The notes: generated by a model not told the origin, from the sequence alone. A stretch of 64,000 nt of DNA from an uncultured Thermoplasmatales archaeon (GCA_963807965.1 CAWEDU010000017.1:207452-271451); one strand, 5' to 3'. Positions 14,416-62,871 are shown, numbered from the stretch's first letter. Numbers and translations are program-made.

Positions 14416-14670
14416 AACTATTTTCTTTCTCTCATTGATATTAACGCCTCCGATATTGATCCGGGAATATATTCATTGAATATAACTGTATAGCTACTGG
14501 ATAAAAAACATATAGCATGTGACTAACAATATGAATCAATGTTATTTTTCAGATCATTATTAGGTATATTTGTTACATGCGTTAGTCCAGGAAAAAATAG
14601 AAAATAAATGAGTCCCATCCCCAATGGTTCCTAAAGAGGTGTTGTTATAGCCCTGGATAGATTTGGCTAT

Positions 14671-15400
14671 ATGGATCTGGAGTTCGGACAGATCTTCGGA
14701 TCCTACAGAAGGGATTTCGTCCCTCTTGAAGCTGGCATCCTTATCAGCGATGGTAATGGAAAAGTGATCGACATAAGGGGAACCGAGTTCGATTTCGATG
14801 GGGAACTTGTTGTCAGAAAGAACTCTTGTGATTCTTTGGGGAATCCGATCGGGTTAGAGGAGAAGGTCTACAATCCATCACAGAAATGTTCCAAGTCCTA
14901 CGATCCAAGGTTCAGGATCTCCCATAAAGAGCGACAGGAGATAAGATCTATCGCCAAGAAGACTTTCAAAGCTCTGGGTGGTTTTTGTGAGGATGTTTTG
15001 GCGGAGCATGATCTGGAGGAAATGGTTTTCTACGGAGCGCAGGAGGACCTTAACCTTCTTATGAAAGCTGGAATGGATGTATCATCGATAAAGGTCAATG
15101 ACCTTCAAAAGGTATTGAGGAAGGAAGTGGGTCAGGACCTATCTCTGGACAAGATCTCTCTTGCCATGGGTTTTAAAACGGATGATACAAAGATCCTTTC
15201 ACACCATTTCCATTACGAACTACCCTCAGAGTCACAGTCAACATCTTGAACCACACATGGCTCTAGGCGATGTTGCGAGAATATTCCTTCTCCATAGAGA
15301 GATGGAGTTTCACAGGGACCATCTTATCTCATCTGCAAAGGACCTATTGGACAAGATAGAGAGCTACAGGAACAGTGATGAGGAGGTACCAATCTTTTAA
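14671..15400 (+). CDS. DEDD-type 3'-5' exonuclease-like (RNase H-fold) protein with degenerate motifs, split by a frameshift between 15161 and 15249.
   Basis: ORF1 carries an Exo-II-like FYGAQEDLNLL. ORF2, in a different overlapping frame, carries an Exo-III-like H-x-A-x-x-D-V (EPHMALGDVARIFL). The assignment is tentative. Confidence 0.3.
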
Positions 15401-15405
15401 GGTGT

Positions 15406-16582
15406 CTACTGGGCTCCTGTTGCTCTTGTAAGGTCAGTTACATTCGATCTGGTGAAGAATCCGTCAAAGTCTCCGTAACGGTGTATGTATTCGTTTACAA
15501 GGAAGGTATTCTTGCTTCCCTTGGTGAAGGTTTGCTTTAAGCCTTCCTCTAAAGATCCCACAAGCTCCAGATAGGAATTCCATTCCATCCTGAATGAGAC
15601 CCTCGTAGGTGTCCTCGATATTCTCTGTATGGAACGCTACATGATGGACCCTTGGTCCGTAGTTGTGAACATATTTTTCAGTCGGACCGCACTCCTCTAA
15701 GCTTGTGAAAGGTGAGATGCCAGTGGTGAATACCTGTGCATAGTCCTTATCCGAGAGCCTGGCAACGTTGGTGATCGAATTGAAGTTCTTAACATAAATG
15801 GCAAAATCGAACTTGTAATTGGTGAGTTCCATGAACTCTATGATCGCTGCATCCCGGTTCTGTGATTCCAATCTGGTTGCTGCATGATCAAGATATTTGA
15901 CGTTCTTCAGATAGTCCGATGTGGATTTCTCCAGACCAAGATCGATCTCCACATCATCATTGGAGATGTAGGTACCCTTCTTTCCTTTCCATTCGATGAA
16001 ACCGATCGAATTCCCCGTGAATGAAGAGGGGATGGTCTGAATGAAGGAATATTCATCCGTGTGAACAATATCTTCCGTAAGGAATCTTACACCTCTTTCC
16101 TTCTGGATCCCGAAATACTTCTCAATATCCAAGGTCTCGAAAACCAGTGTCTCCAGTCTGGAGTTCAGGAGGTCCTTTGTTTTTGGGGCTATGTTATAAG
16201 GTAAGAATGGGTTTTTTCCAGATCTTCTATATCTGACTATGAAATCCGCGGAATCATCTACCTTCAAAACAGCTTCTTTTTTACACTCGTTCTCATATGA
16301 TGAATGAAGATTTAGGCCTGTGAAGTCCAGGAGTTCTTTGACTGCTGAATTGAAATTAATTCCTTCTGTATTGATGATGACAGCATTGAGTCCCTTGACC
16401 AATCTGTCAAGACCGAATTCTCTTCGATTATCAATAGCCATGGGGACCGATCTCGAGAGAACCTCATCAGAGTTCTTGAAATCCTGTGGATCTAATGGTG
16501 TGGGACCACATTCTTCGAAATAAAAAGCATCGATCCTTTCAACATATTCCCTCATTATTTCGGGGCAGATCTGTTGACTCAT
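15406..16582 (-). CDS. VOC-superfamily dioxygenase, 4-hydroxyphenylpyruvate-dioxygenase-like, frameshifted near 15585-15600.
   Basis: VHHVAFHTENIEDTYEGLIQDGMEFL is a VOC/HPPD C-domain signature. The overlapping ORF 15406..15588 encodes an HPPD-like C-terminus (LKQTFTKGSKNTFLVNEYIHRYGDFDGFF resembles LLQIFTKP..FFEIIQRKGDDGFGEGNF). Confidence 0.5.
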
Positions 16583-16642
16583 TGTCGGTCACCCATCTCA
16601 AACTCTCAAAGGGATTGATATTTATTATTCTTTTCAAACGGA

Positions 16643-17242
16643 TCAAAGAGAGGTCAGGTAGATCTGCAAGATCAAAAAGAATAGAGCCTGCACAAAGAGA
16701 TAGTGTATTGCAAGGTCCGATCTGCACTTCAATCTCATCTTGAGGAACGAATAGGAAAAGACAGTAGCGATCAAGAACCAGGCCACGTAGTTCTGGATAG
16801 GAATGCTACCTCCTGACCAATTCCAGTAGTCAAGTTTGATCGCTACGGGTTCAAGGAAGAAATCGAATAGAGTGGATATACCTCCTCCAATGATGGATGC
16901 AATATAGATATTCGGCGAGATCTTATTTGCAATAATTACCGCACCCACCACCACAAGCACCCAGTTGAATCCGATCACCAGTGGGACCTCCAAGATCATG
17001 GGTCCCAATGTGGGACCGTATGTATACTCCCCAAAAACAGCTCCAGTGGCAACACCAATGGCTTCGATGGAGAAAGTGATGATATAGGTGATCGACACCC
17101 ACATCAGGAATCTAAGATCCCTCTTCACAATGGAGGGATGGATGATGAATATCCCCATGCCCAGGAGGAATATTGGTGTTAGGGATATCATGAGGTCATG
17201 GGTTTGGGGAATCCAATGTCCAATAATACCAACTGAGAACAT
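16643..17242 (-). CDS. Carotenoid-biosynthesis-associated polytopic membrane protein (DUF422/CruF-like family).
   Basis: The 199-aa protein has about 6 TM helices. It sits immediately downstream of crtB/crtI in the same orientation. The family assignment is tentative. Confidence 0.45.
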   Translation of the reverse strand: MFSVGIIGHWIPQTHDLMISLTPIFLLGMGIFIIHPSIVKRDLRFLMWVSITYIITFSIEAIGVATGAVFGEYTYGPTLGPMILEVPLVIGFNWVLVVVGAVIIANKISPNIYIASIIGGGISTLFDFFLEPVAIKLDYWNWSGGSIPIQNYVAWFLIATVFSYSFLKMRLKCRSDLAIHYLFVQALFFLILQIYLTSL

Positions 17243-17307
17243 GATGTAAATGATAGCAGGAGGTATGTATCCTTTCCATGCCTGGAAAGATTTTAAAGAA
17301 GACCGGT

Positions 17308-18132
17308 TTAAATCGTCAATTTCTTTCCGATCAGATTCCCCACGATCCTCAACTTTGATGGTTTCACCTTCTTTCTGTATATGACCATTGGATCCTTTCT
17401 GATCCTTCCCGCCGTCCAGTTGTACATATCAGATGCGTTCATGACCGGTATCCTGTATCTCTTCTCCAGTGCATCGAAACCCTTTTCCGCCTCTTTCTGC
17501 CAAACCTCATATCTGTCAAGTTGGGATCGGATGAATCTCCTGAAGGCATCCTTATCATTCTCGATGTCCTTAAACTTCAGACCCCTTAGACCTGACTTTT
17601 CTATCTCTTCTGTGGGGAGATACCTTCTACCAAGATGATTATCTTCCTCGATATCCCTTATGAAATTGATATACTGCATTGCCTTCCCAAGCGAACGTGC
17701 ATGCTTGAAGAAGCCCTCATCCACATCAAGTATCCTTGACATCATCAGGCCCACGACCTCTGCAGAGCCGTAAATGTATTCCTCGACCTCCGCCAGTGTG
17801 TCATAGGTGGATTTGGTAATGTCAAGCTCCATGGAATGGAGGAAAGCCTCAACCCATTCCTTTTCGAATTTCTTTCGATGTGCAAGGTTCGTGAAGCAGT
17901 CTAAGACCTCATCCCCGATCATCTCTCCATCCCATGAACGGCAGAAATCATCCTGGAATTTACAAAAATCATCCTTTCTCTGAGGGACCGCATCCACATG
18001 GTTATCAGCAACCCTTACGAAACTGTACAAGATAAAGACATCATCCCTTACCTTTGCAGGAAAGAATATTGAGTTGTAGAAGTAGGTCTTCGACCCCTTC
18101 TTGAAGATCTCATAGAACCTGTTTTTTTTCAT
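17308..18132 (-). CDS. crtB: Phytoene synthase (squalene/phytoene synthase family).
   Basis: Asp-rich motifs YSFVRVADNHVD and YINFIRDIEED; 274 aa; adjacent to crtI. Confidence 0.8.
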   Translation of the reverse strand: MKKNRFYEIFKKGSKTYFYNSIFFPAKVRDDVFILYSFVRVADNHVDAVPQRKDDFCKFQDDFCRSWDGEMIGDEVLDCFTNLAHRKKFEKEWVEAFLHSMELDITKSTYDTLAEVEEYIYGSAEVVGLMMSRILDVDEGFFKHARSLGKAMQYINFIRDIEEDNHLGRRYLPTEEIEKSGLRGLKFKDIENDKDAFRRFIRSQLDRYEVWQKEAEKGFDALEKRYRIPVMNASDMYNWTAGRIRKDPMVIYRKKVKPSKLRIVGNLIGKKLTI

Positions 18133-19586
18133 CTTTCAAGATCTCCTCGACAAGTATCTTTGATGATATCAACACCATTGGGACGCCGATACCTGGATGT
18201 GTATATTGCCCTGTATAATAAAGGCCTTTTACTCTTTTAGACCTGTGTGATGGCCTGAATATGGCAGTTTGGGTCAAGGTATGGGCAAGACCTAGTGCTG
18301 TTCCTTTATATGCATTATACAAATCAGAAAAATCCCTGTGGGTTACCACCCTTTTACTGATAATGTGGTCCTTAATTTTCTCCCCTAGAAGATCTTCCAG
18401 ATGTTCTATCGTTGCATTGAAGTATCTCTCCCTTATCTCATCAGTGTCATCCAGACCTGCAGCTACCGGGACTAGGAAGAAAAGGTTCTCACAACCTTCC
18501 GGAGCAACGGTAGGATCAGTTTTTGATGGACAGCAGATATAATAGGATGGATCCTCGGGCCAACCGGGTTTGTCGAAGATCGACTGGAAATGCTCATCCC
18601 AGGAGGGTGAAAGGAAAAGGTTGTGATGGGTCAGTCCCTCGATCCTCTTGTCCAAACCGATGTAGATAAGAACACAGGAGGGAGCGATCTTTTTCCTTTT
18701 CCAGTATTTTTCGCTGTAAGTTCTGTATTTCTTCTCCAGCAGATCGAGTTCGGCATGGGGGTAGTCAGCATTGATGATTACCAGATCTGATTTGAGTTCG
18801 CTCTTGGTTGTTTTTACCCCCTTCCCCCTTCCTTTTTCAACAATTATCTCCTTCACTTCCTCATTGAACCTGAATTCAACCCCCTGCTCCGTCCACAACT
18901 TCCTGAAGGATCGGGCAAGTTTCCCCATACCTTCTATCGGATACCAAACTCCCAGGTTGAAGTCCACATGCGACATCAGAGCATACATTGCCGGACTCTT
19001 GTTGGGGCTCCCCCAAGGAAGACAATGGTGTATTCCAGTATCTTTCTCAGGTCCTTATCCTTGATGAATCTCTTGGCATATGTGTCAAGGCTGTCGAATA
19101 CGTGGAGTTTCGTTCCCTCTATCATCAGCTTCTTACTGGCGAAATCGAAAATGGAGTTGTATTCCTTGTAAATGAACTCCCCCATGGCGATCTTGTATTG
19201 GTAAGCCGCAGAATCAAGATAATCCTGAAGCTTTCTGCCCCCCTCCTCCTCGATGCTGTCGAAGAGTTCCTTGTTTTTCTCCAGGTCAGCGCTGATATCC
19301 AGCCTTCGGTCATTGGAGTAGAAAACCCTGTAGTTTGGGTCCAGCCGTTTCAGTTCATAGTAATCGGTCACCTCTTTCCCGAATTCCCTAAAAAGGTCCT
19401 CGAACACCTCTGGCATCAGATACCATGAGGGACCCATATCGAATACGAACCCTTTGTCCCGATGAACAATGGCACGTCCCCCGGTTGATCGTTCTTCTCG
19501 ACAACCGTAACATCATGCCCTTCTTTCGCAAGCAGAGCTGCCGCGGTCATTCCTCCGAATCCAGCTCCCACTACAATGATCTTCAT
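18110..19586 (-). CDS. crtI: Phytoene desaturase, interrupted by two -1 frameshifts, each at a G5 homopolymer (about 19010-19014 and 19478-19482).
   Basis: The N-terminal frame gives [36 protein letters not shown]. It continues in ORF 18976..19437 ([13 protein letters not shown]...FLGGAP) and then in ORF 18110..18988 ([24 protein letters not shown]...). Adding one G at each run restores QPGGRAIVH and [16 protein letters not shown]. Confidence 0.8.
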
Positions 19587-19638
19587 GACTTCCCCAACAT
19601 TCCATAAAGATGTTAAAATATATAAAATCGAACAAATA

Positions 19639-20355
19639 CTATTCTTTCGAGGAAGATTTGGAGATCTTCTTGAATGATCTCACCGCTAGCAGGTATATGA
19701 ACAGATAAATTGTAAGAAGTGAGAAGTTATAGAAGAAATCCTCCAGAGGAATGGTGAAGAACCTTCCATTGAAAAGGCCGTCACCTCCCCAAATGTGTTG
19801 AGATGAATATTCGACGATGGGTATGGCAGTAAGCACCATGTTGAAGGTTGTAAACAGAACGAGGGTGATCATTGTGTATATCCAGAACCTTCTTGATGTA
19901 AAAAGAGACCCGTCTGGCAGGGAAATGATCATTATCATCAATGAGGTACAGATCAAGACCACGAAGGTATAACCCTGATCGATGAACAGGAAAGCAGAAG
20001 CCCCTATCAGAACTGCAGATCCTATGTAGATGAACCTGTTGAACGGGACCTTCCATTCCTTGAAATAATGCACGATCACTTCATAGGTAAAGAGACAGGC
20101 ATAGGGCACTGTTATAAAGAAAAGGAACTCCTCGAGAGGGATACCAAAAATCCAGATACCTGTCAGATGCTCCTTGTTGAAGGACCAGTGTCCAATTCGG
20201 TTACTATCGAATCCCATGTAATGAAGATTGCTCCCCGAGGATCATGGAAACAGCCAAGGTGATCGCCACCTTTTCCAAAAGGTGATCCTTCGGTCAAACG
20301 AGAGAATGAATGGAAAAAAAATCACAATGATATCGAATATCAGATAAGTATACAT
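19639..20355 (-). CDS. crtY: Fused lycopene cyclase domain protein (CrtYcd type), N-terminal region frameshifted.
   Basis: Two PxE(E/D)F motifs ([15 protein letters not shown] and [13 protein letters not shown]). An N-terminal piece [30 protein letters not shown] lies upstream (20266..20355) in another frame near an A8 run (20314-20321). Confidence 0.65.
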
Positions 20356-20356
20356 C

Positions 20357-21702
20357 TCAACCTCCGAACATTTTCACATATGGTTCCATATCAAATTTCC
20401 TCTCAAGACCCCTTTCGTTCATGTAACGGACTTTTCCGAATACTGGCCTTTTTTTCCAAGGTCTGTCATGCTTTCCAAAACACCAGGCCACACCGGCATA
20501 TGAGTTCGGGTCCCTTCCATCGAGGTTGTATTTGTTATTCAAGAAGATGGCCCTATCGAAAGCGTCTCGTGGGTCCATGGTCCATTCGAGGATCTTCTTC
20601 CCCCAGTACATTCCTCATGTAATTATGCATCTTTCCTGTAACCACCATCTCCTTCTGGGCCGCATTCCAGTAAGGATCATGTGTCTCGGCGTTCTCCATC
20701 TCCTCAATTGAATATGTATATTCTCTTTGATCAGATGAATGGTCCTCAAGAGTAGTAATTGCCCATTCGGGCAGACAATCGAACGTATCATAATGGGGAT
20801 TATAATGCGAGTGGTTCATGGCAAGCTCCCTTCTGACGATCAGTTCTTCCAGGAACGCATCTCCCCCCTCCCCACCATGATTCATGATCTTCATCGTTAA
20901 GAAAAGAGGAGATATCTGTCCAAAATGTAGGTAAGGTGACAGATCAGATTGGATGCCCTTCGATGGATCGTTTCTCTCACCTGAATACCTGTCAAGCTTG
21001 TTCACAATGAAGTTATGGAGCTTCAGATTTGCCTCTCCTCCACCCCCTATGAACATTTCCACAGGTTGTACAGAAACATCAATGTCCATATCCTTCAGTA
21101 TACTCCCTGGATAATTGATATCAATGGAATCGAACTCCAGATCAAGGGAATCTCGGGAAGGCCATAGCTCTCTAGGGACTACCAGGTGCTCATCCAGGTG
21201 TTCATGGATCCTGGGCCGGAGGACAGCTGCTGAATATGCTTCCTTGGGATATGCTTCTTCTACGGGAATAATTACATCCGACTCGACCATTTCAAGAAGG
21301 CATTTAGCGTGAGATGCCAGCTTCTCTCTCCACTCCTTTTGATGTCTGAGATAACCCATATCACATATCGTTATTGCCGCTTCCCTTGACATCTCTATGG
21401 CACCCATTTCAGGCTTGGCCTTCTTTACTACGAATTTTATACCCAGCTGCTGAAGGTCTTCTTCCACCTGCATCAAACCCTCCAGCATGAACATATGGTG
21501 TCTCAGATTGGATTCTGGGTATTGGTCAGTCAGTCCGAAATACACTACAAGTGGAAGATCTAGATTAATGGACCAGTATGATGCCCTTAAGAGCGCATGG
21601 TTGTAGTGTCACTCTCTGGGACTGCTGCATCCAGTATAGGACATATCTGCCATCCTGGATCGGATTCTCATTGAGCCTCCTGATCCTCGGATCTCCTGTC
21701 AT
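20357..21702 (-). CDS. phr: Class II CPD photolyase (deoxyribodipyrimidine photolyase), broken into three frames.
   Basis: N-terminus [31 protein letters not shown] (21564..21702). Middle ORF 20553..21545 ([13 protein letters not shown]-binding region). C-terminal ORF 20357..20611 ([14 protein letters not shown]...[21 protein letters not shown]...FGKVRYMN). At 20600, AGGAATG versus AGGATG restores [18 protein letters not shown]. Confidence 0.8.
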
Positions 21703-22673
21703 CACCAGAGCTCCCTGTCTCGCTTTTCATCGAATGATCGGATGAGTTCCACCGGGTATGGTTGGAAATAATACTGGTTTAAGAGATATTTCACATCGAA
21801 CCTTAAGATCCATGAGTTCATTATCGATATCAATGTTGTCAGTGGGATCCTGTCATCTCTGTATAGATCAAGTGAATCCATGAAAAATGACCTTTCCTTA
21901 TTGGTCAATTGTGAAGAGAAGTAGCCGAAACAGTGCATCAGCACATTGATATGGGATGTATATCGGGGCCCCTTTGAAAGGGCCGATCCAAGTAGACTAC
22001 CATACCTCTCCAAGGTGCTCTCGATACCGATCTCCTTCTGGTTCGAAACAATCCTTCCCATTTCTCTCATTGTGGTCTGGTTGTAGGCCATTAATAAGAA
22101 TTTTGACCTTGAATGGAATTCTATTAGGGATCTTGGAGATGGCTCATCTCTCACAATCCTGAAACGGGCGTTTGTGAACAATTTTGTTAGGAAATGGTCT
22201 CTGATCCTATCATCGGTCAACCGCTTCTCTGTTTCAACTGCAAGATGTGGGAATCTTTTGAGAACCTCCATACCAAAGAATCCGGATCCCATTCTTTTTT
22301 GCGTTCCTCTTTCCTTGGACCCGTAGATCTTGACATCATCCAATCCACATGATGGTGATTTTGCCTTCAGTATGAATCCATCCACCTCTTTGAGACCATC
22401 CAGCTTGTCATTGACAAAAGAGATCATCTTTTCTGTATGGTCCAGGTCTGTCGAGGTCTGATAAAGGTGATATCCCGAATCATCCTCATATACCTTCACC
22501 GGAGCTCTTGGGACTCCTAGACCTATTCCCATTTCCGGGCAATCGTGAATAATATCAGAGTGGCCCATGAGCTTCTTTACTATTTCAGAGCCAATGATGG
22601 AACCGTCATATCTGCAGTTTGCGTATTCCAAACATCTGCTGCAGTATACCTTAGGTTTTACTCCGTTCCCCAT
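21702..22673 (-). CDS. DUF523/DUF1722 two-domain protein (YbgA/TudS-like). Its stop overlaps the photolyase start in an ATGA arrangement.
   Basis: N-terminal Cys-rich DUF523-like region (KPKVYCSRCLEYANCRYDG) and a C-terminal helical DUF1722-like region. The same gene pair is ybgA-phr in E. coli. Confidence 0.55.
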   Translation of the reverse strand: MGNGVKPKVYCSRCLEYANCRYDGSIIGSEIVKKLMGHSDIIHDCPEMGIGLGVPRAPVKVYEDDSGYHLYQTSTDLDHTEKMISFVNDKLDGLKEVDGFILKAKSPSCGLDDVKIYGSKERGTQKRMGSGFFGMEVLKRFPHLAVETEKRLTDDRIRDHFLTKLFTNARFRIVRDEPSPRSLIEFHSRSKFLLMAYNQTTMREMGRIVSNQKEIGIESTLERYGSLLGSALSKGPRYTSHINVLMHCFGYFSSQLTNKERSFFMDSLDLYRDDRIPLTTLISIMNSWILRFDVKYLLNQYYFQPYPVELIRSFDEKRDRELW

Positions 22674-22770
22674 CAGACCTACCCAATGGTGATCGGTTCA
22701 ATAAATGATAATCCTATCTATCAATAAATGAAATAAGGGACAACAGGACTTAGAGGATAAGAGGTATTAG

Positions 22771-23208
22771 ATGGCGATACCACCTGAGAAATGGAGGGCA
22801 GCGGTCTGTTACGACTCTCCTTCGGTGACCAAAATGGTCAGAAAGACACTAGATGATCTGGGTTGGAAGTATGAACGGGATAGGGCCCTTCATCACTTCT
22901 CCAGATTAATGATAGTTATAGCAATTCCATCCAATTCCTATGTGTTCAGGTTTCTAGTGAAGGACCCAGTTGAGATCACCATCGATGTTTATAATGAAAG
23001 ACCCACACATGCCGGGGATATCCATTTCCTGGAAGTGGATGGGATCACCAGCAGGAATGCAAACCGTGTCAGGACCTTTCTGTTAGGTTTCTCTAAGAAC
23101 CTTCCCAGGAAACCTTACAGTTTCTTTCCGGTAGAGAGGTTCAAGGCAGGTTTTCTCAACAGACACCATATGACTGCGAAGCGGGAATGGTCCAGGTGGG
23201 GTGTCTAA
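22771..23208 (+). CDS. Hypothetical protein.
   Basis: 145-aa ORF with no recognisable motif. Confidence 0.35.
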   Translation: MAIPPEKWRAAVCYDSPSVTKMVRKTLDDLGWKYERDRALHHFSRLMIVIAIPSNSYVFRFLVKDPVEITIDVYNERPTHAGDIHFLEVDGITSRNANRVRTFLLGFSKNLPRKPYSFFPVERFKAGFLNRHHMTAKREWSRWGV

Positions 23209-23882
23209 TCCTCCCAACTGGAAGCTCCCGGTTTGAATCCCAATTTGGGAAATGGTCTGGACCCTGATGTAGCTATGTTGTCAAGGTGGCCTGCGATCCT
23301 GCGGAGGATCCTTGCGGTGATCAGAGAGCAGATGACCTCTTTTCTTGCCAGCTCTTTATCGCTCAACCTCTCCACCAGGGAATCGTATTCTTTCTTCAGG
23401 CCCCTTTCCCTCAATGTGACCTTGGTAGGGTATGTCTTCTCCATAACCACAAGAGAATCGCGAGCTTCCAGGAACATCATTGAAATGTGGTCCTTCATGG
23501 AGTTCAATCTATCACTGATGTCATGGGTAAATGGTTCAGTAAACTTGTATTCCTCTCTCAGGAGGGCAAGGTCCTTAGCATAATCTCCAATTCTCTCGTA
23601 ATCGATCACAAGGGATATCAGAGTTAGACCGCCATGGATATTCGGGACCGAGGAGAGTGAGAAGTATTCGAATACCTTTTTTCTCAACACCTGGACATTT
23701 TTATTGACCTCTTTATCCATCTTGACTATCTCATCGGCATCTATTCCTTGATCGATCAAAGCCCTCATTGAAAGAAGGAACATCTCTTGGGTCTGGTGCT
23801 GCAGCTGGTCCATTATCTCGTAGCTCTCATCTATGAGAGGATTCTTTCTCAATGCATCCCAGATGTTTTTGAACATCTCCAT
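23205..23882 (-). CDS. PhoU-like phosphate-transport regulator.
   Basis: 225-aa helical protein with PhoU-like repeats (ERIGDYAKDLA). It sits immediately upstream of a Na/Pi cotransporter gene. Confidence 0.6.
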   Translation of the reverse strand: MEMFKNIWDALRKNPLIDESYEIMDQLQHQTQEMFLLSMRALIDQGIDADEIVKMDKEVNKNVQVLRKKVFEYFSLSSVPNIHGGLTLISLVIDYERIGDYAKDLALLREEYKFTEPFTHDISDRLNSMKDHISMMFLEARDSLVVMEKTYPTKVTLRERGLKKEYDSLVERLSDKELARKEVICSLITARILRRIAGHLDNIATSGSRPFPKLGFKPGASSWED

Positions 23883-23910
23883 ATCTCCTTGAATATCTAT
23901 ATAGATGTAA

Positions 23911-25122
23911 TTATGATAATAATAACCTGTCGAAAAGTATCACGGCTCCCGGTATCACGAAGAATACCACTATCAGGAAGATGATCGCCATTTTCCTGTT
24001 TATGGAAATATATTTAGCCACTTTCCTTGCAAGGTAAATGGGTACCTTCTTGAATGGTAGAAGGAGTATAATTCCAGTCAGATTAAAATAGAGATGGACA
24101 AATGATATTGCGAGTGCATATTTTGAGCCTTCAGGATCGGCAAGGTCCTGACTAGCAATGGCTGCTAAAAGTGCAGTGACAGTTGTTCCGACGTTAGCTC
24201 CAAGGGTATAGGGGAATATCTGTTCAATGGACAGTATACCTCCCCCTACAAGGGGAACAGCAATGGATGTGGTGACAGAAGAGCTTTGAACGAACGCAGT
24301 GAGAAGCATGCCAAAGGTGAAAGATGTTGCAGTGTTCCTGAAAAGGACCTTGTCCACCAGTTCCTGGACCTTGCCGTCAATAGCCCTCCTTGCAGCTTTG
24401 GTGATGAAAGTGAGAGAAGTAAATAGAATAGCCAGGCCGATAGCTATCATTACCGTTTCCGGAAATATCCCTACATTTAGAATTCCCTCCTTGATCGGTT
24501 CAAGGACGGGGTCCAATATCCGGGAAATGAAGTCGAATTCCAGATTCCGATCCTCCCCCACCAATGTTGATGCAGTGGCTTCCCCCATCCTTTCAAGGAA
24601 ACCTTTCCCTGTCAAGATCCTTACCAGCCACTCCATGGGGAATATCAAAGAAGCGGATATAACATTGAAAAAGTCGTGGACCAGGGCCCCTCCAAAAGCT
24701 CTTCTGAAGGATGGAGGGTGCCTGATATGTCCCATGGAAACCAGGATATTGGTGACAGAGGTTCCTATGTTGGCCCCGATCACAATTGGGATGGCATTAG
24801 GAAAGAATGCAGGATTGGCCACTACCATTGCGACCACGGTAGATGTAGTAGCTGATGATGATTGAACAACAGCGGTAGCAAGGACTCCGATACACAGCCC
24901 CACAAGAGGATTCGATGTCGTCTCGATCAGGTCGTTGGCAAAATCATGGCCTAGCCCTTTGAAACCTGATCCCATTAGCTTGATACCGATAATGAAGAAA
25001 TATATGGAGATGGTAAAGATCATAAGATTGAACCATTGTTTCTGTTTTAGTCTGAAAAATAATCCTTTGGGCTTCCCGAAAGGATTGGTTTGGTTCTGAT
25101 CCTTCCCTTTTCTATTCTCCAT
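23911..25122 (-). CDS. Na+/phosphate cotransporter (NptA/type II Na/Pi family).
   Basis: Two internal repeats, each with the QSSSATT signature (VVQSSSATTSTVVAMV and FVQSSSVTTSIAVPLV). Polytopic membrane protein. Confidence 0.8.
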   Translation of the reverse strand: MENRKGKDQNQTNPFGKPKGLFFRLKQKQWFNLMIFTISIYFFIIGIKLMGSGFKGLGHDFANDLIETTSNPLVGLCIGVLATAVVQSSSATTSTVVAMVVANPAFFPNAIPIVIGANIGTSVTNILVSMGHIRHPPSFRRAFGGALVHDFFNVISASLIFPMEWLVRILTGKGFLERMGEATASTLVGEDRNLEFDFISRILDPVLEPIKEGILNVGIFPETVMIAIGLAILFTSLTFITKAARRAIDGKVQELVDKVLFRNTATSFTFGMLLTAFVQSSSVTTSIAVPLVGGGILSIEQIFPYTLGANVGTTVTALLAAIASQDLADPEGSKYALAISFVHLYFNLTGIILLLPFKKVPIYLARKVAKYISINRKMAIIFLIVVFFVIPGAVILFDRLLLS

Positions 25123-25226
25123 ACAACTCGAGCCAATATTGAGGTATATTCTTTAACTTTTCACTACATAAATTATAGTGGTCTATGTTTAATATATATT
25201 CTATATGTATTTGGTTTGATACTCCT

Positions 25227-25940
25227 TCATTTTGCCATCATTGCCCTGATCCTGTCAGCTGCATTTTCCGCTTTATCAGCAACCTGTCCCAGACGGTCAA
25301 CCACCTTGAGCATGTGAACGACTGAAATGGGATCCAATATATCTTGATCGATATTGAAGAGGTCTCTTGAAATTGAGAACTCCAGGATATCTGCCTCGTG
25401 CTCGAGAAGATGTACTTTTTTGATCATATCCTTTACCCGGTCTCTCTCAAGACCGCGGAAACTACTTTCAATTAGGTTTTCCATACTATCCATGATATCC
25501 TGGAATGCTTTTACACACTCAAGGACCTTTTTTGCTAGATCCCTCAATTTATTAGATATATTCTCAGGAAGGCAGGTCCTTTTCATAGTTAGAAGAACAG
25601 CCACATCCTCTGCATAGTCCAGGATAGAATCCGCATCATGAAGAAGCATATGGAAATGATCTTTGGGGACGGGCATGAATATGGATTTTGGTATGTGGGC
25701 TCTTATATTCGCTTTGATGAGATCTGCTTCATGTTCTGCTTTCGAAACCAATTCCTTATCCTTTTCCACTCTTTCAAAATCACATTCAAGATAATGGACC
25801 AGGCATTCTTTCATATGGAAAACACATTCATCCAGTTTATTTGAATGATAACCTAAACCCTCAAATGGATTCCTATATATTGTATTAAGGATAGGCACAC
25901 GAATATTGTCTAAGATAGATTCTTTTTCCATATTCACCAC
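25227..25940 (-). CDS. DUF47/PhoU-like protein associated with the Pit phosphate permease.
   Basis: 237-aa helical protein placed directly upstream of the PiT gene, the arrangement seen for the TIGR00153 family. Confidence 0.55.
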   Translation of the reverse strand: MVNMEKESILDNIRVPILNTIYRNPFEGLGYHSNKLDECVFHMKECLVHYLECDFERVEKDKELVSKAEHEADLIKANIRAHIPKSIFMPVPKDHFHMLLHDADSILDYAEDVAVLLTMKRTCLPENISNKLRDLAKKVLECVKAFQDIMDSMENLIESSFRGLERDRVKDMIKKVHLLEHEADILEFSISRDLFNIDQDILDPISVVHMLKVVDRLGQVADKAENAADRIRAMMAK

Positions 25941-25943
25941 CTT

Positions 25944-27271: not shown

Positions 27272-27428
27272 TTCAAATGACCTCTTTTAAGGAACCTCTC
27301 GAATTGGAAGCGGAAAAACCAGATAGCAGCAAGGAAACCCCTATCATTTCTACCTTTTATGCTGAAGTTTAAAATCGGATATATAGATTATGTTTTAGAG
27401 ATCGATGTCATTAAGATACGATCCATCA

Positions 27429-28795: not shown

Positions 28796-28992
28796 ACCGA
28801 CGCGCCATCAGGCTTTTTGCATATATAGATTATCTTATGAATTCCATAAGATCTCAAAGTATCAGAAGCAATTTTCAATGAAAATTCTAATTTCTCCCTA
28901 TATTAATGACCAAATTCAATGATGGATACGATTAATTAAAAAGCATTCAAAAAACCAATAATATATAAATTAATAATAATATATGGATATTC

Positions 28993-30718: not shown

Positions 30719-30721
30719 TCG

Positions 30722-31357: not shown

Positions 31358-31363
31358 GAAAGA

Positions 31364-48773: not shown

Positions 48774-48927
48774 ACAGGATGATCAAGATTCCAAAAATGA
48801 TCCAATGAAAGAATTCGGGAGGCTAGTTATTTAATCAGACATGGATCCCGAATACAGGTCTAAAAATGAAAATAAGCAAAATATAATATCTATCAAGTAA
48901 TACCATCGATACAAGAGGTCCATTCCA

Positions 48928-50690: not shown

Positions 50691-52490
50691 TTATTCATTC
50701 CTCCCCCGGAATATTACAACTCCCAGGATAAAGGCAGCGGCAATGATCAGGATCAAGAACGCACTGATGAACCATTGAGGTATCTTGAAGTCCTCTGCAT
50801 CGCTCCTTTCTCCCCCCTGGATGGTTATCTCAGTATGAACAATGCTTGTGGACTTACCCACATTCCCGCCAGTATCTGATACAGGTCTATCGAAAGCTCT
50901 TACCTCAATGCGGTGGGTCCCCAGTCCCAGTAATTCGGAATTCATCTGGTGGAGGAAAGGTATCTTTCCCTGTCCGGATATACCTGGCATGGTGGTCCAT
51001 TCTCCGTTGTCAACTCTTACCTCGACACGGTCGACCATCTCCCTATCGTAGGCGACACCCCTCAGGATTATTGTACCTTCATCAAGAGGGAAGGTCGTAT
51101 TGAACTGAGGGCTGGTTATTGTTACCGTGGGATCTGAATCTTCTATTGGGTCTATTCCATAGTAGGAATGGAGGAATTCATCCCACAGATGCTCCCTTGC
51201 ATAGGATGTCTCCTCGTAGGAGAGGAGATAATTGGTCGGGAGTTGAGTAATGGAAAGGGAATCCTCATCCTTGTTTGGAAAATACATGGAAAGTCCATTT
51301 GCCTCCGGATGCCATTGATCCGCTTCGGATGCAAACATGAATCCCTCTCCCGGAATGTCACTGGTGATGGTTTCCCTCACTTTTGCAGTGAGTTCCTGGA
51401 TCATATTGTTCTTGGGGAAAGCATCTGCAATGTACTGGTCAAGGTATTCTGTGAAATCAATGATATCATAGAGGGGATAGCCAGTCAGATCATAGACGAA
51501 AACATTTGCCATATCGTATGAGTTGCAGTTCTTCCTGGCCTGATATATCTGAAGAAGGTATTCCAATCCCCCGAGGGGGCCCTTAGAACCGAGTTCTTCC
51601 GAGAACTCGTCCAGTACTGCTACGACCTCGTCCATGAGTTCGAGATCGAACGCTGCCTGGGTGACCATTGGGTAATCCTGCGGGTCCTGCTGCTTGTTGT
51701 TATAGGAGTAGATGTATTCATGGACTATTATTGCTGCAAATTCCTTCTCATCCATTCCGGGCTTCTCCGTCAATGGTCCCAGGACCTCATCATAGGGCCA
51801 ACCGTCACCGGGCTCATTGTAACCTGAGCCAACACCGACTTTAACGAAATCCTTGAGCTCATACATGACAGCTACCTGTGCCATAAGACAGGCATCGAAT
51901 CCCCAAAGGTCCATCTTACGATTTCCCAGGACCTTGTAGATCTCTTCAGCAGCATAGTTCACATCCGACATGTTCAGGGCATCATACTCTCCTTCGGGTA
52001 GATCAGGGACAGTATCATCAAAGCATACACCTCTGAAAGCTCCACCATGGTTCCATAATATCAAGGCATATTTCTGTGCGGGATAGTTCTTGACGGACCA
52101 GGAAACAAAATCGATCAACGTTTCAGGGTCGCCCATATTCACTTCACCGAGCCTTCCCTGTTCAGGAGAAGTGATGGTGTCCCTGTCGAGGTCCTTTTCT
52201 ATGTAGAATCTTCGGCAATCATCCCAGTCCCCATTCGTGGAATCATAATCCCTTATCCGGTCCATCTGGACAACAATGTTCACATCATCCGTGGAACCGA
52301 ACTCCTCCATTTCGTTCATATCATCGATCCCTGCAGCCTCCAGATTGTTGTCGGCATCCAGGTAGACCATGAAAGTCCATTTGGGGAGCTCATCCTGCCC
52401 TTGGGTTGGTTCCAGGAAGGGAACCATGGATAGAAAGAAAAGTGAAACGGCGAATATCGAGATAAGCGAAGTTGCCTTCAATGGGTGCAT
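50691..52490 (-). CDS. Clostripain-family (C11) cysteine peptidase with a signal peptide, an Ig-like domain and a C-terminal TM anchor.
   Basis: FMVYLDADNNLE, His region ILWNHGGAFRG, catalytic Cys region WGFDACLMAQ. Signal peptide MHPLKATSLISIFAVSLFFLSMV. C-terminal TM segment WFISAFLILIIAAAFILGVVIF. Confidence 0.8.
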   Translation of the reverse strand: MHPLKATSLISIFAVSLFFLSMVPFLEPTQGQDELPKWTFMVYLDADNNLEAAGIDDMNEMEEFGSTDDVNIVVQMDRIRDYDSTNGDWDDCRRFYIEKDLDRDTITSPEQGRLGEVNMGDPETLIDFVSWSVKNYPAQKYALILWNHGGAFRGVCFDDTVPDLPEGEYDALNMSDVNYAAEEIYKVLGNRKMDLWGFDACLMAQVAVMYELKDFVKVGVGSGYNEPGDGWPYDEVLGPLTEKPGMDEKEFAAIIVHEYIYSYNNKQQDPQDYPMVTQAAFDLELMDEVVAVLDEFSEELGSKGPLGGLEYLLQIYQARKNCNSYDMANVFVYDLTGYPLYDIIDFTEYLDQYIADAFPKNNMIQELTAKVRETITSDIPGEGFMFASEADQWHPEANGLSMYFPNKDEDSLSITQLPTNYLLSYEETSYAREHLWDEFLHSYYGIDPIEDSDPTVTITSPQFNTTFPLDEGTIILRGVAYDREMVDRVEVRVDNGEWTTMPGISGQGKIPFLHQMNSELLGLGTHRIEVRAFDRPVSDTGGNVGKSTSIVHTEITIQGGERSDAEDFKIPQWFISAFLILIIAAAFILGVVIFRGRNE

Positions 52491-52665
52491 CCTCCTTTTA
52501 TTGATTACAACTCCGGTAATGATATAATCTTTATGGTCATGGGTATGAACAGTTACTCCTGAATATCAAAGAAATCCGAACATTAGATATACGTGTGTAC
52601 GATGAAGGTAAAAAAGAACAGGAGGGAGTCCCCTGGAAGAAGCAATCTGCCATATCGAGATAAGC

Positions 52666-52815
52666 ATGGAGGACGATGAGATCGTTGCAAAGCTCCAGAG
52701 TGACCTTGGAGGGATCAGGGAGTTCAGGTCATTGACCTATGAGCAGGTCCTGAAATTGGTGGTCAATGAGCTTCAGGAAGAGCTGGAGTTCAATACAGAA
52801 CATGAGGTCGAGTGA
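52666..52815 (+). CDS. Possible small acidic protein (49 aa) in the 16S leader region.
   Basis: ATG-to-TGA ORF reading MEDDEIVAKLQSDLGGIREFRSLTYEQVLKLVVNELQEELEFNTEHEVE. It is below the track's size cutoff and has no further support. Confidence 0.2.
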   Translation: MEDDEIVAKLQSDLGGIREFRSLTYEQVLKLVVNELQEELEFNTEHEVE

Positions 52816-52852
52816 GCATATCTGGACAGTCCTCTGTTCCATTCGGAAATGT

Positions 52853-52947
52853 TTTTATATCAAATCAATATTAGCAGGTTTCCCCCAGGGGGTCATTGAC
52901 CCATCTGTGGGGAACTTGACCTCACTTATAATAAGGGTTATATATTC
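52853..52947 (+). promoter_or_regulatory. Candidate archaeal TATA-box promoters for the 16S rRNA gene.
   Basis: GAAATGTTTTTATAT (52847-52861), then CTTATAATAAGGGTTATATATT (52925-52947), about 225-320 nt upstream of the mature 16S 5' end. The stem-loop CCCCCAGGGGG sits between them. Confidence 0.35.
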
Positions 52948-53112
52948 GACCTTGTTTAAGGGGGTCTTACCCGCAGCCATTTGCGTTGTTCCGTGAGACG
53001 GTGTATTGCCTCAGATGATCGGAACCATCCAGGCCCGCGGACATATGAAAGGGGTTGGAGAAACCCGGAGAAATCCGTGACCTCTCCTATCCGACATACG
53101 ATGAAAGTGATA

Positions 53113-53131
53113 CTTGAGCGAATCGAACGTT
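53113..53131 (+). other. 5' half of the 16S processing stem (pre-rRNA excision helix, BHB-type). It pairs with 54683..54700.
   Basis: CTTGAGCGAATCGAACGTT is nearly perfectly complementary to AACGTTCGGTCGCTCAAG at 54683-54700, bracketing the 16S. Confidence 0.55.
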
Positions 53132-53169
53132 GTGTGCAGGAAGATGGAAAGTATATTTCTCATCTGCCA

Positions 53170-54647
<1,478 letters not shown>

Positions 54648-54682
54648 AAGAAATTAACCTTATTGGATCCCTACGATCCATT

Positions 54683-54700
54683 AACGTTCGGTCGCTCAAG
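54683..54700 (+). other. 3' half of the 16S processing stem.
   Basis: Complementary to 53113-53131. Confidence 0.55.
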
Positions 54701-54717
54701 CACTTAATTCATCGTAT

Positions 54718-54744
54718 GCCGGAATGAAACCCCTTTCTTTTTTC
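54718..54744 (+). terminator. CGGAATGAAACCC motif followed by a T-run; a putative rRNA terminator or processing element (copy 1).
   Basis: GCCGGAATGAAACCCCTTTCTTTTTTC. The same core recurs at 54941-54966. Confidence 0.35.
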
Positions 54745-54940
54745 TTTGATTTACAAAAGAATCAATATGAGATTCGTAAATCAAAGTGCGCTTAATGAGA
54801 TGTAGAATTGTCGGTCTAATTAAGTTGGACCTTCACATCTGTGATGTGGAGGGCAGGAAAAAACCGAAACTGAAAGTTGTTTTTTCCTATGATCTCGAAC
54901 TTCTGATTCAATGAATTATTAACGAGAAGGAGTTACGAGG

Positions 54941-57134: not shown

Positions 57135-57704
57135 ATGCATCTGTATGAAAATATGATACAACTGTATCAAAATATCAATACACTTAAGGTCCTCAGCCAT
57201 TTCTTCAAGGATCCATACACTGGATATTATCTCCGGGAGCTTGCCAGGCTGCTAGATATGGATCCAATGACAGTTAAGAGAGCACTCGATTTACTGGTAA
57301 ATGATGGTTACCTTGAAAAATATGAAGAAAAGAATCTGCTCCTTTACAGAGCGGATATGAATAATCCCCATTTCACTTTCGCCAAGGTCTCCTACAGTTT
57401 ATCGATAATATATGATCAGAAAGTGGTAGAACATATAATGGAGAAAGTGTCCGGTTTGATCTGCATTGTTTTATATGGAAGTGTATCAAAGGGAGAGGAT
57501 GGTACGGAAAGCGATCTGGACCTTCTCATTATTGGTGGATCATTGGGTGACACCTTGGATTCATTTGATCTACCTTGGGAATTCAATCTTGTTTTCATGA
57601 CACTTGATGAATGGGATGATACATACCATAAAAACAGGGGTTATTACGATGAGATAATCAGGACAGGGATTAATCTCCATGGAATTTTGCCGGTGATCGA
57701 TTGA
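57135..57704 (+). CDS. Minimal nucleotidyltransferase (MNT) with an N-terminal wHTH; antitoxin-type partner of a HEPN protein.
   Basis: NTase motif LYGSVSKGEDGTESDLDLLIIG. 4-nt ATGA overlap with the downstream HEPN gene. Confidence 0.65.
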   Translation: MHLYENMIQLYQNINTLKVLSHFFKDPYTGYYLRELARLLDMDPMTVKRALDLLVNDGYLEKYEEKNLLLYRADMNNPHFTFAKVSYSLSIIYDQKVVEHIMEKVSGLICIVLYGSVSKGEDGTESDLDLLIIGGSLGDTLDSFDLPWEFNLVFMTLDEWDDTYHKNRGYYDEIIRTGINLHGILPVID

Positions 57705-58141
57705 GACTTGATGAATGTTACAAGAAGAGATTCCTTAGGAGAATTAAACCGGATATGAATAAATCGGAAAAATCTCTAAAAATGGCGGAGGAGAAATTGT
57801 TAAAAGCAATTGAACTGAAATCTTCCGGATTCAATGAGGAATGTCTGGTGGCGTCCTATTCTGCCATGCTTATGGCTGCAAGGGGTCTATTATTTTCCGA
57901 TGGTGTGATGGAGAAAAATCATTATTGTGTTATTTTATACTTGAAAGAGAATTATCTGAATGAGATCGGTCAGGGTCCGATATCCTGGCTTGATGTTTAT
58001 CGTAGTGAACGGCATCAATGGTTCTATGGATTAGATAGCCTTTCCACTTCGGAGAAAGGATCAAAAAATGCCGTTGATCGTGCAACCAGGTTTATTGATA
58101 TCGTCAAGGTGCTGCTGAAAGGTGACGAATCTGAAGAATAA
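57701..58141 (+). CDS. HEPN-domain protein (toxin-type partner of the MNT).
   Basis: 146-aa helical protein with an R-x(3-4)-H-like motif (YRSERHQ), coupled to the MNT gene. Confidence 0.55.
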   Translation: MRLDECYKKRFLRRIKPDMNKSEKSLKMAEEKLLKAIELKSSGFNEECLVASYSAMLMAARGLLFSDGVMEKNHYCVILYLKENYLNEIGQGPISWLDVYRSERHQWFYGLDSLSTSEKGSKNAVDRATRFIDIVKVLLKGDESEE

Positions 58142-60618: not shown

Positions 60619-60918
60619 AATTCAGGCCACTTCCGTCACTAATGTATCACCTCATCCTCCATTTAATCGTTCTCCTTTAAAACAGGTCTTGGATGTAAAT
60701 CGATCCTCAGATCTGCTGTATCAATTGATCGTCCCAATTACCAAATCGATAATGTAAGTTGACATCCTTTCCTCGTTCATGAGGTCCTTCAGGATCAGGA
60801 AGATACTGACTGATGGTAGTATCAAAATAGATACCAGGGGACCTTAAGAGAGATAACATCAGAATATATTTCGATTGATACCGGATGGTCCAGGGAACCC
60901 CTGGACCTTGGATATGTA

Positions 60919-61272
60919 TTGTTCGAACCCGATGATAAGTGGATAGAGACCTTTTATTTTGACAAATGGTATAATATCTTCAGGATCGCCTCGGGAAAGG
61001 GTGAACTCAAGGGTTTCTACATAAATATTACCAAACCTCCGATCATCGGATCTGATACCATCGATTGGGAGGACCTTGCAATCGATATTTGGGTGAGGCC
61101 GGATGGGTCCTATTTGGTACTGGACGAGGATGAGTTTGAGGACCTTGTTATAGATCAAAATATTCGTATTGGAGCCCTGGAAGCATTGGAAACCGTTAAG
61201 GAAATTGTAAGAAAGAAGGACATAAGCGTGTTTGATTTCCCTTGGTATTCCCAACTTTTAAAATATGATTGA
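60919..61272 (+). CDS. Small DUF402-like protein (tentative).
   Basis: 117-aa ORF. The upstream frame is open, so the start is uncertain. Confidence 0.3.
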   Translation: MFEPDDKWIETFYFDKWYNIFRIASGKGELKGFYINITKPPIIGSDTIDWEDLAIDIWVRPDGSYLVLDEDEFEDLVIDQNIRIGALEALETVKEIVRKKDISVFDFPWYSQLLKYD

Positions 61273-61287
61273 TACCATATTTTTTTC

Positions 61288-62871
61288 ATGGTTTGGAAGG
61301 GATTCTTCAATCTGCATGTGATTATATTTTTCATTCTGATGGTCTTCCCCCTGATTCCTCTCCTTGAGAATAGGTCGGATGGAGATTCAACTAAGGGGAT
61401 CGTAGATGATCATCTGGATATTCAAAAAAATGATTGGATTATCGATTCGAAAGATTTCGAATCGAACCTGGGAGGGATGAATCAATCCCAAAATGATTTT
61501 AGAGGGATAGATAAAAATGCTGATGAAGGAAGAGTAGATACTAAATCAAACATCAAGGAAACCGTTCCTCTGAATGCATACGAAGGACCGAAGTATTCAA
61601 ATAAAGATCATAACAAAATTGAATTGGATACTGGAGATCTTAGATCCGGGTCCGATTGGACATTGATGGTCTATCTTGATGGGAATCACAATCTTTGCAC
61701 TCACGGTTCAAGCGACATGGCTGAGATAAACGCATCCTTTGCCACGAATGTGGATGTCCTTGTCCTGAAGGATGACGATAGCGAAGATGGAAATGACACA
61801 AGGATGTACTACGTGAACGGAGGGATCTCGGCAGAGATACATCCCAATTGGCTCGATGATGAGGAGAACATGGGGGATGGAGATAATCTCTATGACTTCG
61901 TCAATTGGACCCTCTCGAACTATCCCTCCGACAGGACAATGTTGCTTTTTTGGGACCATGGTTCAGCTTACTGGGGATGCTGCCGTGACGAGGATACTGG
62001 ACCGGATTTCATTGAAGATGAAGATTCCCTGAGGATAATGGAAATCAGGGATGCTCTTGACAGAGCCATTTCTCCCGGTGATAAGCTCGATATCATGGCA
62101 TTTTGCGCTTGCAGCATGGCCAATACCGAGGTTTGCTACTGCATGGCAGATTATGCAGATTATCTGCTCGCATCCGAACAGTCCGGCTGGCTCACAGAGT
62201 CGGAAGGATTCAATTGGGATTTCACATTGATAATAAATGAGATGAATTCGAACGACGATCCCGTTGATCTGTGTGAGTATATTGTCGATACGACGATGGT
62301 GAACTCGGAAAATGTCCAAGCCCACAGATCTCATACCTGGAGTGTTATCGATCTGAGTGAAATGGAGGACCTCAAGGATAGACTCGACTGGTTCTCATAT
62401 GAATTGATGGAAGCATTCCCTGAATATTATTATGAGATATCCCAAGCAAGGTTGGCAACAGAGGAGTATAAAAGCGGAGTTCGGCCTGATTTGTACCACT
62501 TCGCCCAGAATATTAAGAATCATGGAAATCTACCTTCTGACCTGAAGAATGCGGCAAGCACATTGACGAGCGGGGTAAATAATGCTGTAATTTATGAGGA
62601 CCATAGAACAGGAGATGATGTTGTCACATCCGGTTTGTACGACCCAGCGATCACTAGCAGATCAGATAAAATCGCAACGGAGGACAAGGACAAGACTCAT
62701 GGACCCGTTGACAACGCCCATGGTTTGACGGTTTACTTTCCTGTAAACCATTCCGGAGAGAGTCTTTGGTATTACAGAAGTTCCACCCATGATAAAGTAC
62801 TTTACAGATCGATCCGTTTGGGACGAATGGCTCGAGATCTATACGGATTTCATATATGTAGACGACAGTAA
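61288..62871 (+). CDS. Second clostripain-family (C11) cysteine peptidase. It very likely continues by a +1 frameshift near 62795 into the beta-helix domain annotated next.
   Basis: LMVYLDGNHNL, LLFWDHGSAYWG, MAFCACSMANTE. Signal peptide-like VIIFFILMVFPLIPLL. Confidence 0.75.
   Translation: MVWKGFFNLHVIIFFILMVFPLIPLLENRSDGDSTKGIVDDHLDIQKNDWIIDSKDFESNLGGMNQSQNDFRGIDKNADEGRVDTKSNIKETVPLNAYEGPKYSNKDHNKIELDTGDLRSGSDWTLMVYLDGNHNLCTHGSSDMAEINASFATNVDVLVLKDDDSEDGNDTRMYYVNGGISAEIHPNWLDDEENMGDGDNLYDFVNWTLSNYPSDRTMLLFWDHGSAYWGCCRDEDTGPDFIEDEDSLRIMEIRDALDRAISPGDKLDIMAFCACSMANTEVCYCMADYADYLLASEQSGWLTESEGFNWDFTLIINEMNSNDDPVDLCEYIVDTTMVNSENVQAHRSHTWSVIDLSEMEDLKDRLDWFSYELMEAFPEYYYEISQARLATEEYKSGVRPDLYHFAQNIKNHGNLPSDLKNAASTLTSGVNNAVIYEDHRTGDDVVTSGLYDPAITSRSDKIATEDKDKTHGPVDNAHGLTVYFPVNHSGESLWYYRSSTHDKVLYRSIRLGRMARDLYGFHICRRQ

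Follow-up and report, generated by a model that had tools for sequence, protein, structure and literature searches.

We analysed a 64-kb stretch of DNA (64,000 nucleotides (nt), the window) from an uncultured Thermoplasmatota archaeon (GCA_963807965.1, CAWEDU010000017.1, 207452-271451; 45% G+C) in which protein genes are repeatedly interrupted by single-base insertions and deletions (indels). The window holds ~55 genes, and 12 protein genes, including those for phytoene desaturase, lycopene cyclase, photolyase, a phosphate transporter, flotillin, an acetyl-CoA synthetase and large surface proteins, carry ~24 one-base lesions. The coding lesions comprise ~16 insertions and ~8 deletions, roughly one single-base indel per 2.5 kb, and a few intergenic lesions were found besides (12701, 32935 and 38486). 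After gene calling the 12 genes appear as ~36 fragments, and ~29 minimal one-base edits restored every long open reading frame (ORF) free of stops. A preliminary description of this DNA had reported that single-base indels divide many genes, and this was borne out with more lesions than it had listed; those at 15233, 15570 and 21610, the four in lycopene cyclase and those at ~4345, ~4620 and ~4815 are new, the last three lying outside the range it covered. The proteins of the window, fragments included, were found in the public protein collection, all on one 353,290-bp contig. As the fragments are catalogued there as separate proteins, the lesions are present in the deposited assembly.

Reference sequence was obtained with a phytoene-synthase query, which retrieved colinear loci in two independent short-read (SPAdes, Illumina) metagenome-assembled genomes (MAGs). 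The close MAG, GCA_965234725.1, has one contig at ~2000x coverage, and its contigs L001, L045 and L051 are 85-91% identical in nucleotide sequence to window positions 6337-25769, 23653-40644 and 40756-54903, respectively. The second MAG is more distant, and its contigs L002 and L042 span ~12-47 kb of the window. The relatives' ORFs were translated against the window and the DNA was aligned, a lesion being recognised as a change of frame at an isolated 1-nt gap. The ratio of nonsynonymous to synonymous substitution rates (dN/dS) was calculated by the Nei-Gojobori method against the close MAG, with downstream segments read in the post-shift frame. Two genes had no counterpart in the relatives (a beta-helix gene at 3.5-5.2 kb and a C11/beta-helix gene at the window end), and for these the evidence is Pfam matches and reading frame. 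For 10 of the 12 broken genes the orthologue was a single intact ORF in one or both short-read MAGs, and no frame break was seen in the relatives across the orthologous regions compared (~48 kb in one MAG and ~35 kb in the other). Judged from these alignments, the contrast between the broken frames of the window and the unbroken regions of both Illumina relatives is more than chance. Pfam profile positions likewise continue from fragment to fragment in crtI, PHO4, acetyl-CoA synthetase and flotillin.

Interrupted protein genes

The carotenoid and photolyase genes lie together. The phytoene desaturase gene crtI (18110-19586, minus strand; 500 amino acids (aa) in relatives) has lost one base at 19009 and one at 19480. 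Two interruptions at runs of five Gs had been described before and both are present, although each run had been taken to lack a sixth G. All relatives have GGAGGG and GGGAGG at the break sites where the window has GGGGG (coding strand), and the alignment points to the A of GGAGG as the base that was probably lost. The three frames are 93-94% identical in aa sequence to one L001 ORF with dN/dS of 0.03-0.06 in all three pieces, and the Amino_oxidase profile is divided into positions 26-173 and 176-442. Lycopene cyclase (19675-20355, minus strand) contains four lesions inside 70 nt, one base lost at 20194 and 20230 and one gained at 20255 and 20261. By tblastn and three-way DNA alignment the net length change is zero and the garbled stretch contains an in-frame stop; four edits bring back a protein stretch close to that of L002. 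At 20612, 3 nt from a GTAC, the photolyase gene (20357-21726, minus strand; 455 aa in relatives) has gained a T, which corresponds to the AGGAATG for AGGATG reported earlier; a previously unlisted extra C lies at 21610, where L001 has GTAC and the window GTCAC. Its three pieces show dN/dS of 0.03-0.12 and an 84-aa fragment is annotated publicly.

At lower coordinates, a conserved 242-aa gene of unassigned function (14671-15400, plus strand) has an extra C at 15233, with GTAC in the relative and GTCAC in the window. Both L001 and L002 encode it in a single ORF; in the window the frame changes at 15224/5, and the gene appears in the public record as fragments of 192 and 47 aa. Downstream of the break dN/dS is 0.079. 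The adjacent 393-aa gene (15406-16582, minus strand) has one extra base at ~15568-15572, the coding strand reading CCTATCTGG versus CCTG-CTGG, and the 54 codons past the break show dN/dS of 0.048.

The PiT/PHO4 phosphate transporter gene (25944-27271, minus strand; 440 aa in relatives) has extra bases at 26427 and 26432 flanking a GTAC, where TGTACT in the relative is GGTACC in the window. The PHO4 profile matches at positions 1-201 and 200-349 in two frames, and the gene is intact in L045 and in a relative from the Logan contigs (P0159, 440 aa). It was correctly recognised earlier as divided, and the break had been ascribed to one G missing from TTTGGAGG; that stretch is identical in the relative and the two extra bases at 26427/26432 are the cause. 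The flotillin gene (31364-32909, plus strand; 514 aa in relatives) has an extra G at 32637, with GTAC in relatives and GTGAC in the window, in agreement with the AGTGACGG for AGTACGG already noted. Its Band_7 and Flot domains lie in different frames, L042 and L045 are intact, and 424-aa and 95-aa fragments stand in the public record. The acetyl-CoA synthetase lesion was confirmed as one base gained at ~39612-39620 of a gene (38520-40599, minus strand; 692 aa in relatives) that encodes the ADP-forming type of the enzyme; its domains fall in two frames with dN/dS of 0.03 and 0.06, and L042 and L045 are intact.

The next two genes encode surface proteins. Surface protein 1 (40805-45279, plus strand; ~1490 aa) has lost one T from the T run at 42231-42233, which abuts a GTAC at 42234. 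Both L042 (1477 aa) and L051 (1487 aa) carry the gene intact; in the window the change of frame falls between 42172 and 42232, and dN/dS is 0.15 and 0.19. Surface protein 2 (45298-48773, plus strand; 1139-1156 aa in relatives) has extra bases at 45509, ~45550, 47054/5, 47867 and 47984, and the lesion at 47054/5 is a C added immediately before CTAG. An intact 1156-aa homologue (P0164) aligns in window frames 1, 2, 3, 1, 2 and 3, two distant homologues (P0123 and P0124) give the same frame switches, and L051 shows the nucleotide gaps. The long pieces have dN/dS of 0.11-0.22, and five deletions produce a 1137-aa ORF. These frames had been read as parts of one giant protein. The lesions at its junctions hold (42231-33, 45509, 45550, 47054/5, 47867 and 47984); the single giant protein was rejected, as a true stop and start at 45279/45298 match the relatives and leave two genes. 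Gene content varies near surface-protein genes (window 10190-11197; L045 14898-18683; L042 8456-9391 and 19133-19792), with an extra PKD-domain ORF in the window, an extra 1261-aa DUF7948/SBBP/fn3 protein in the close MAG, and an IS1595 transposase and an extra Band_7 gene in the distant MAG.

For the two remaining genes the frames were joined from within the window. The beta-helix surface-protein gene (3555-5153, plus strand) is spread over four frames with bases missing at ~4340-4350, 4609-4625 (T runs) and 4808-4820. Beta_helix Pfam matches occur in three consecutive overlapping ORFs, and three single-base insertions (~4345, ~4620 and ~4815) create a 533-aa ORF with no stops. The C11 peptidase/beta-helix gene (61288-64000, plus strand) runs past the window end, and we infer one extra base within 62747-62868, with the best placement at AAAGTAC (62793-62800). 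The C11 and Beta_helix/NosD matches fall in successive frames, and joining these lengthens the C11 match from profile position 307 to 357 of 359; this Pfam evidence supports the break previously put at ~62795. A C11 paralogue in the window gave no alignment across the 62.8-kb junction.

Other features were observed outside these genes. Window 4000-6000, which includes the broken beta-helix gene, is AT-rich (33.5% G+C versus ~45% elsewhere) and possibly represents an island of foreign or strain-variable DNA. A 240-aa ORF at 32970-33692 reaches into the next gene, ending 33 codons beyond the stop of its orthologues (203-207 aa). Its altered stretch at 33585-33692 (GGTACAATACGGTAC versus GGTTTAATA--GAGGTA) contains GTAC twice and differs by 2 nt in length, and may be a further consensus error. 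Two likely toxin-antitoxin pairs, at 57135-58141 and 37492-38315 (nucleotidyltransferase with HEPN; UPF0175 with DUF3368), are both intact.

Lesion context, selection and same-population sequence

To be counted as a homopolymer lesion an indel had to alter a run of at least three identical bases. Such a change is seen at 42233 (T4 to T3), probably at 4620 and possibly at 62795 and 20194, and is absent at ~20 other lesions. The preliminary description had held most lesions to be homopolymer length changes; only 2-4 of the ~24 alter a run of three or more bases.

A different context was found instead. The tetranucleotide GTAC is rare in the window (75 occurrences in 64 kb). Over all lesions eight sites, about a third, lie within 3 nt of a GTAC (P = 1e-9), and among lesions placed by alignment 5 of 16 do so against 1.2% expected (P = 8e-7). 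GTAC was the only one of 16 four-base palindromes tested that was enriched at lesions, and 4 of the relative's 33 GTAC sites have an indel in the window. The outcomes were symmetric between strands. GTAC became GTCAC or GTGAC three times, which is one change seen on opposite strands, and TGTACT became GGTACC once, with one base added per side. Short runs abutting GTAC were also miscounted. At least 14 of 17 resolvable insertions stand beside their transition partner by our reading of the alignments (binomial P = 0.0014), and both crtI deletions take out an A between G runs. Of all 4-nt palindromes, CTAG and GTAC are the two most strongly avoided, CTAG having observed/expected ratios of 0.54 (window) and 0.44 (relatives); GATC is abundant (10.5 per kb).

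Selection on the broken genes was then compared with that on their neighbours. Every measurable segment downstream of a break had dN/dS of 0.03-0.22, intact neighbours had 0.02-0.18, and dS was 0.2-1.1. Genes with four or five lesions showed no relaxation of selection, and the rise of dN/dS towards 1 expected after a disabling mutation was not observed. As downstream segments evolve like intact genes, the lesions are either too recent to leave a trace or artefacts.

Sequence from the same population was available in three Logan contigs from run ERR11523668, which match the window at 99.6-100% identity across 5.9 kb. Their single length difference is an extra base in the window at 12701, in an intergenic stretch (12699-12702, CATGTCCTG) where the window is one base longer than L001 and also one base longer than Logan contig L050. 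L050 is 99.6% identical to the window over 3.1 kb and is without the extra base. The window and L050 differ by 0.3-0.4%, indicating that the population is polymorphic. A patch of five mismatches between them at 14827-14846, where the window matches L001, represents by this comparison real strain variation in the sampled population. Look-ups with the exact protein sequences of neighbouring genes turned up no contig spanning a coding lesion, and a chimeric query of 19 corrected 110-aa lesion segments returned one irrelevant match, its candidates being swamped by low-complexity words.

The 16S rRNA gene and two conserved start regions

The single 16S ribosomal RNA (rRNA) gene (53170-54647, plus strand) was examined with Rfam alignments. 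One base is missing at ~53788, 2 nt after a GTAC, so that the two strands of a helix have 7 and 8 nt; another is missing at ~53647 in the 530 loop; and at ~54606/7 there is an A-to-C change within the universal GUCGUAACAAGG. Its score with the archaeal model is 1334 bits, whereas two archaeal 16S genes from Illumina data reach 1515 and 1488; 17 indel columns are unique to the window gene, versus 2. These comparisons are suggestive only of the same kind of damage as in the protein genes. A metagenome scan anchored on the suspect helix returned as its only match a 16S sequence 76-78% identical, which agrees with the Rfam consensus. The window 16S region (53170-54903) is 82.8% identical to L051 13520-15243, with 94-96% identity in the upstream spacer and 90-93% in neighbouring genes, and synteny between the two stops just past the 16S gene. 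As the L051 16S is only 83% identical although its flanks are 90-96%, it is unusable as a reference for the 16S lesions; either the rRNA gene has been replaced or one of the two assemblies, more probably the short-read MAG, is a chimera at this gene.

Two start regions had been listed as damaged and carry no lesion. The CoA-disulfide reductase start (14415-14450, minus strand) was said to be one A short; the stretch is equally long in the Illumina relative L001, and the same-population contig L050 shows no difference in it. No canonical start precedes the Rossmann strand KIVVIGG (L001 and L002 ~13690-13730). The window, L001 and L002 share a GGAGG, a spacing of 7 nt and an in-frame ATC ahead of KIVVIGG, which suggests an AUC start, and an out-of-frame ATG/GTG just downstream had misled the earlier reading. 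The SRP54 start (28770-28800, minus strand) was thought to contain an extra G, and the same arrangement, GGTGATGGAC[C/A]ACGGTCCT, is found in the window, L042 and L045. Its sole substitution, C/A, is synonymous in the SRP54 frame, and all differences in the N domain are synonymous. The body of SRP54 is in one frame, 91-98% identical to the relatives. No ATG, GTG or TTG occurs at the N terminus in the three genomes (L042 ~3560-3630, L045 ~5080-5140), and the conserved N domain directly follows an in-frame TGA. In all three an ACG precedes VLDSLGESL, 5 nt after a Shine-Dalgarno-like GGTGAT, and is likely to be a conserved near-cognate start. With no canonical start, gene callers shorten the protein to 397-423 aa, and in L045 too it was called as a 397-aa protein. 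Going by their conservation, both arrangements are features that resemble non-AUG starts and not assembly errors, and since short-read genomes share them they should not be "corrected". The claim that essential genes are affected therefore falls, as SRP54 and CoA-disulfide reductase are intact.

Origin of the frame breaks

The frame breaks are a real property of the deposited sequence, and we put the probability at about 0.8 that they are not one of the organism, the lesions being consensus errors of a long-read, probably nanopore, assembly rather than biology or gene decay. This reading rests on the intact orthologues in short-read MAGs, the undiminished purifying selection, the motif-specific and strand-symmetric signature, and the check at 12701. 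The occurrence of the 16S gene within a 353-kb MAG contig also suggests long reads. Sequencing error in place of decay had been proposed before and this part stands. The flow-based chemistry offered with it was rejected, as most lesions lie outside runs, which indicates context- or modification-dependent long-read errors. The contig would have been built from error-prone long reads and incompletely polished. One class of error would involve GTAC itself or the 3 nt on either side of it: a C or G is inserted mid-motif (GTSAC), a base is doubled on each side or an adjacent run is miscounted; a base modification in GTAC could disturb base calling on both strands, and the strand symmetry of the GTAC changes fits this. 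In a second class a purine would be dropped or added beside another purine (GGAGG read as GGGGG), and two competing calls for one position may both have been kept, placing the inserted base beside its transition partner. Where lesions cluster, with four in 70 nt of lycopene cyclase and five in one surface-protein gene, the consensus would be poor over the stretch, possibly where strains differ. Involvement of GTAC modification in the errors we consider roughly an even bet, the modification and the platform both being inferred.

Published work offers partial precedent. Methyltransferases producing N4-methylcytosine or N6-methyladenine at GTAC are widespread in archaea (PMC10609329, PMC11033074), nanopore consensus errors are dominated by methylation motifs (PMC6591954), and methylation increases A/G miscalls near motifs (bioRxiv 10.64898/2026.01.14.699587). 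As in the modification-mediated nanopore errors at Dcm CCWGG and Dam GATC sites (Wick et al. 2019, PMC6591954), one short palindrome is affected on both strands, and the errors persist into the consensus and coexist with short-run miscounts in accurate surroundings. The window differs from those cases in its motif, GTAC, in its source, an uncultured archaeon, in having mainly 1-nt insertions, and in that about 10% of sites are affected. It resembles the homopolymer errors of flow-based (454, Ion Torrent) and early nanopore sequencing in that single-base indels fragment genes and a few fall in T/A runs (4620, 42233 and possibly 62795), and is unlike flow-based errors in its many insertions of a different base into non-repetitive context. 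In unpolished long-read MAGs (IDEEL-type fragmentation; Sereika et al. 2022, PMC9262707), many adjacent same-strand fragments each match part of a full-length orthologue, as here; nothing essential differs, and the window is a typical case.

Several observations weigh against consensus error or against a role for GTAC modification. Most of the 75 GTAC sites are clean, with about 10% affected, and the depletion of GTAC is only moderate (observed/expected 0.62 in the window and 0.67 in the relatives). No methyltransferase gene is present within the 64-kb window, and the published methylation-linked nanopore errors are mainly substitutions, not insertions. The lesions are patchy, with none in 21.7-26.4, 26.5-32.6, 32.7-39.6 and 48.9-52.6 kb. 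The same-population contigs cover one lesion only, the intergenic one at 12701, and no coding lesion. No broken protein gene is essential and each is plausibly dispensable, so selection cannot rule out real mutations.

If the breaks are artefacts, their cause may be a mixture of strains rather than base modification, with both alleles of a single-nucleotide polymorphism kept in tandem (+1) or neither kept (-1). We regard this as possible though clearly the less favoured cause. Position 21610, with GTGAC in the window, GTAC in L001 and GTGC in L002, resembles two alleles in tandem, and so may 12701, where the window has GTCCTG, the same-population contig GTCTG and L001 GCCTG. The polymorphism of the sampled population (0.3-0.4% between the window and L050), the concentration of lesions in surface proteins, whose content varies between relatives, and the inserted bases beside a transition partner (at least 14 of 17 by our count) all agree with strain mixture. 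Alone it leaves the GTAC enrichment and the symmetric GGTACC unexplained, and flotillin, conserved at 98% aa identity to L045 and expected to have low polymorphism, was nevertheless struck at a GTAC. The two accounts overlap, and mixture and modification may act together.

Real and very recent mutations, a burst of pseudogenes among dispensable genes that could in part arise through GTAC cutting or base excision and inaccurate repair, are very unlikely. The broken genes would suit such a burst, being light-related genes, a second phosphate transporter and surface proteins and none of them essential; the carotenoid and photolyase cluster holds eight lesions, one base inserted at the centre of GT^AC is the scar expected from imprecise rejoining of a blunt cut, and the lineage moderately avoids GTAC. 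However, dN/dS is unchanged even with four to five lesions per gene, it would require fresh breaks in 12 of ~55 genes, none of the lesions being shared by a relative, and the lesions beside rather than in GTAC, together with the many away from it, would need other causes. The sole testable site, 12701, is absent from the same-population contig, and the single 16S gene looks damaged as well. High densities of frameshifted genes are seen in pseudogene-rich genomes such as those of Mycobacterium leprae and recent host-restricted symbionts. Unlike these, the window shows unrelaxed selection, no accompanying deletions, no in-frame stops outside shifted stretches and no lesion common to relatives. 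A narrower form, in which an RsaI/PabI-type GTAC nuclease or glycosylase attacked its own incompletely protected chromosome and left repair scars at GTAC, is more improbable still; if true, it would show a wild archaeal population in the midst of restriction-driven mutagenesis that purges the motif. Least credible of all, to the point of being negligible, is programmed ribosomal frameshifting or another recoding that reads through the breaks. The idea arises only from the conservation of both gene halves and nothing specific favours it. Programmed frameshifting was rejected because the orthologues are plain single ORFs at every site; furthermore no slippery heptamer is common to the sites, the shifts go in both directions with one 2-nt change, and the shifted frame of the lycopene cyclase stretch contains a stop.

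Taken as consensus error, the finding is a routine data-quality problem with a slightly unusual motif signature. Public annotation of the 353-kb contig breaks 12 genes into about three dozen fragments, and inference about pathways or pseudogenes (for example "no functional crtI, photolyase, PiT, acetyl-CoA synthetase", or a "giant protein") is unsafe before polishing. A rule to "fix homopolymers" would miss most of the lesions. For the organism itself, the preference of the errors for GTAC hints at modification of this motif in the uncultured lineage.

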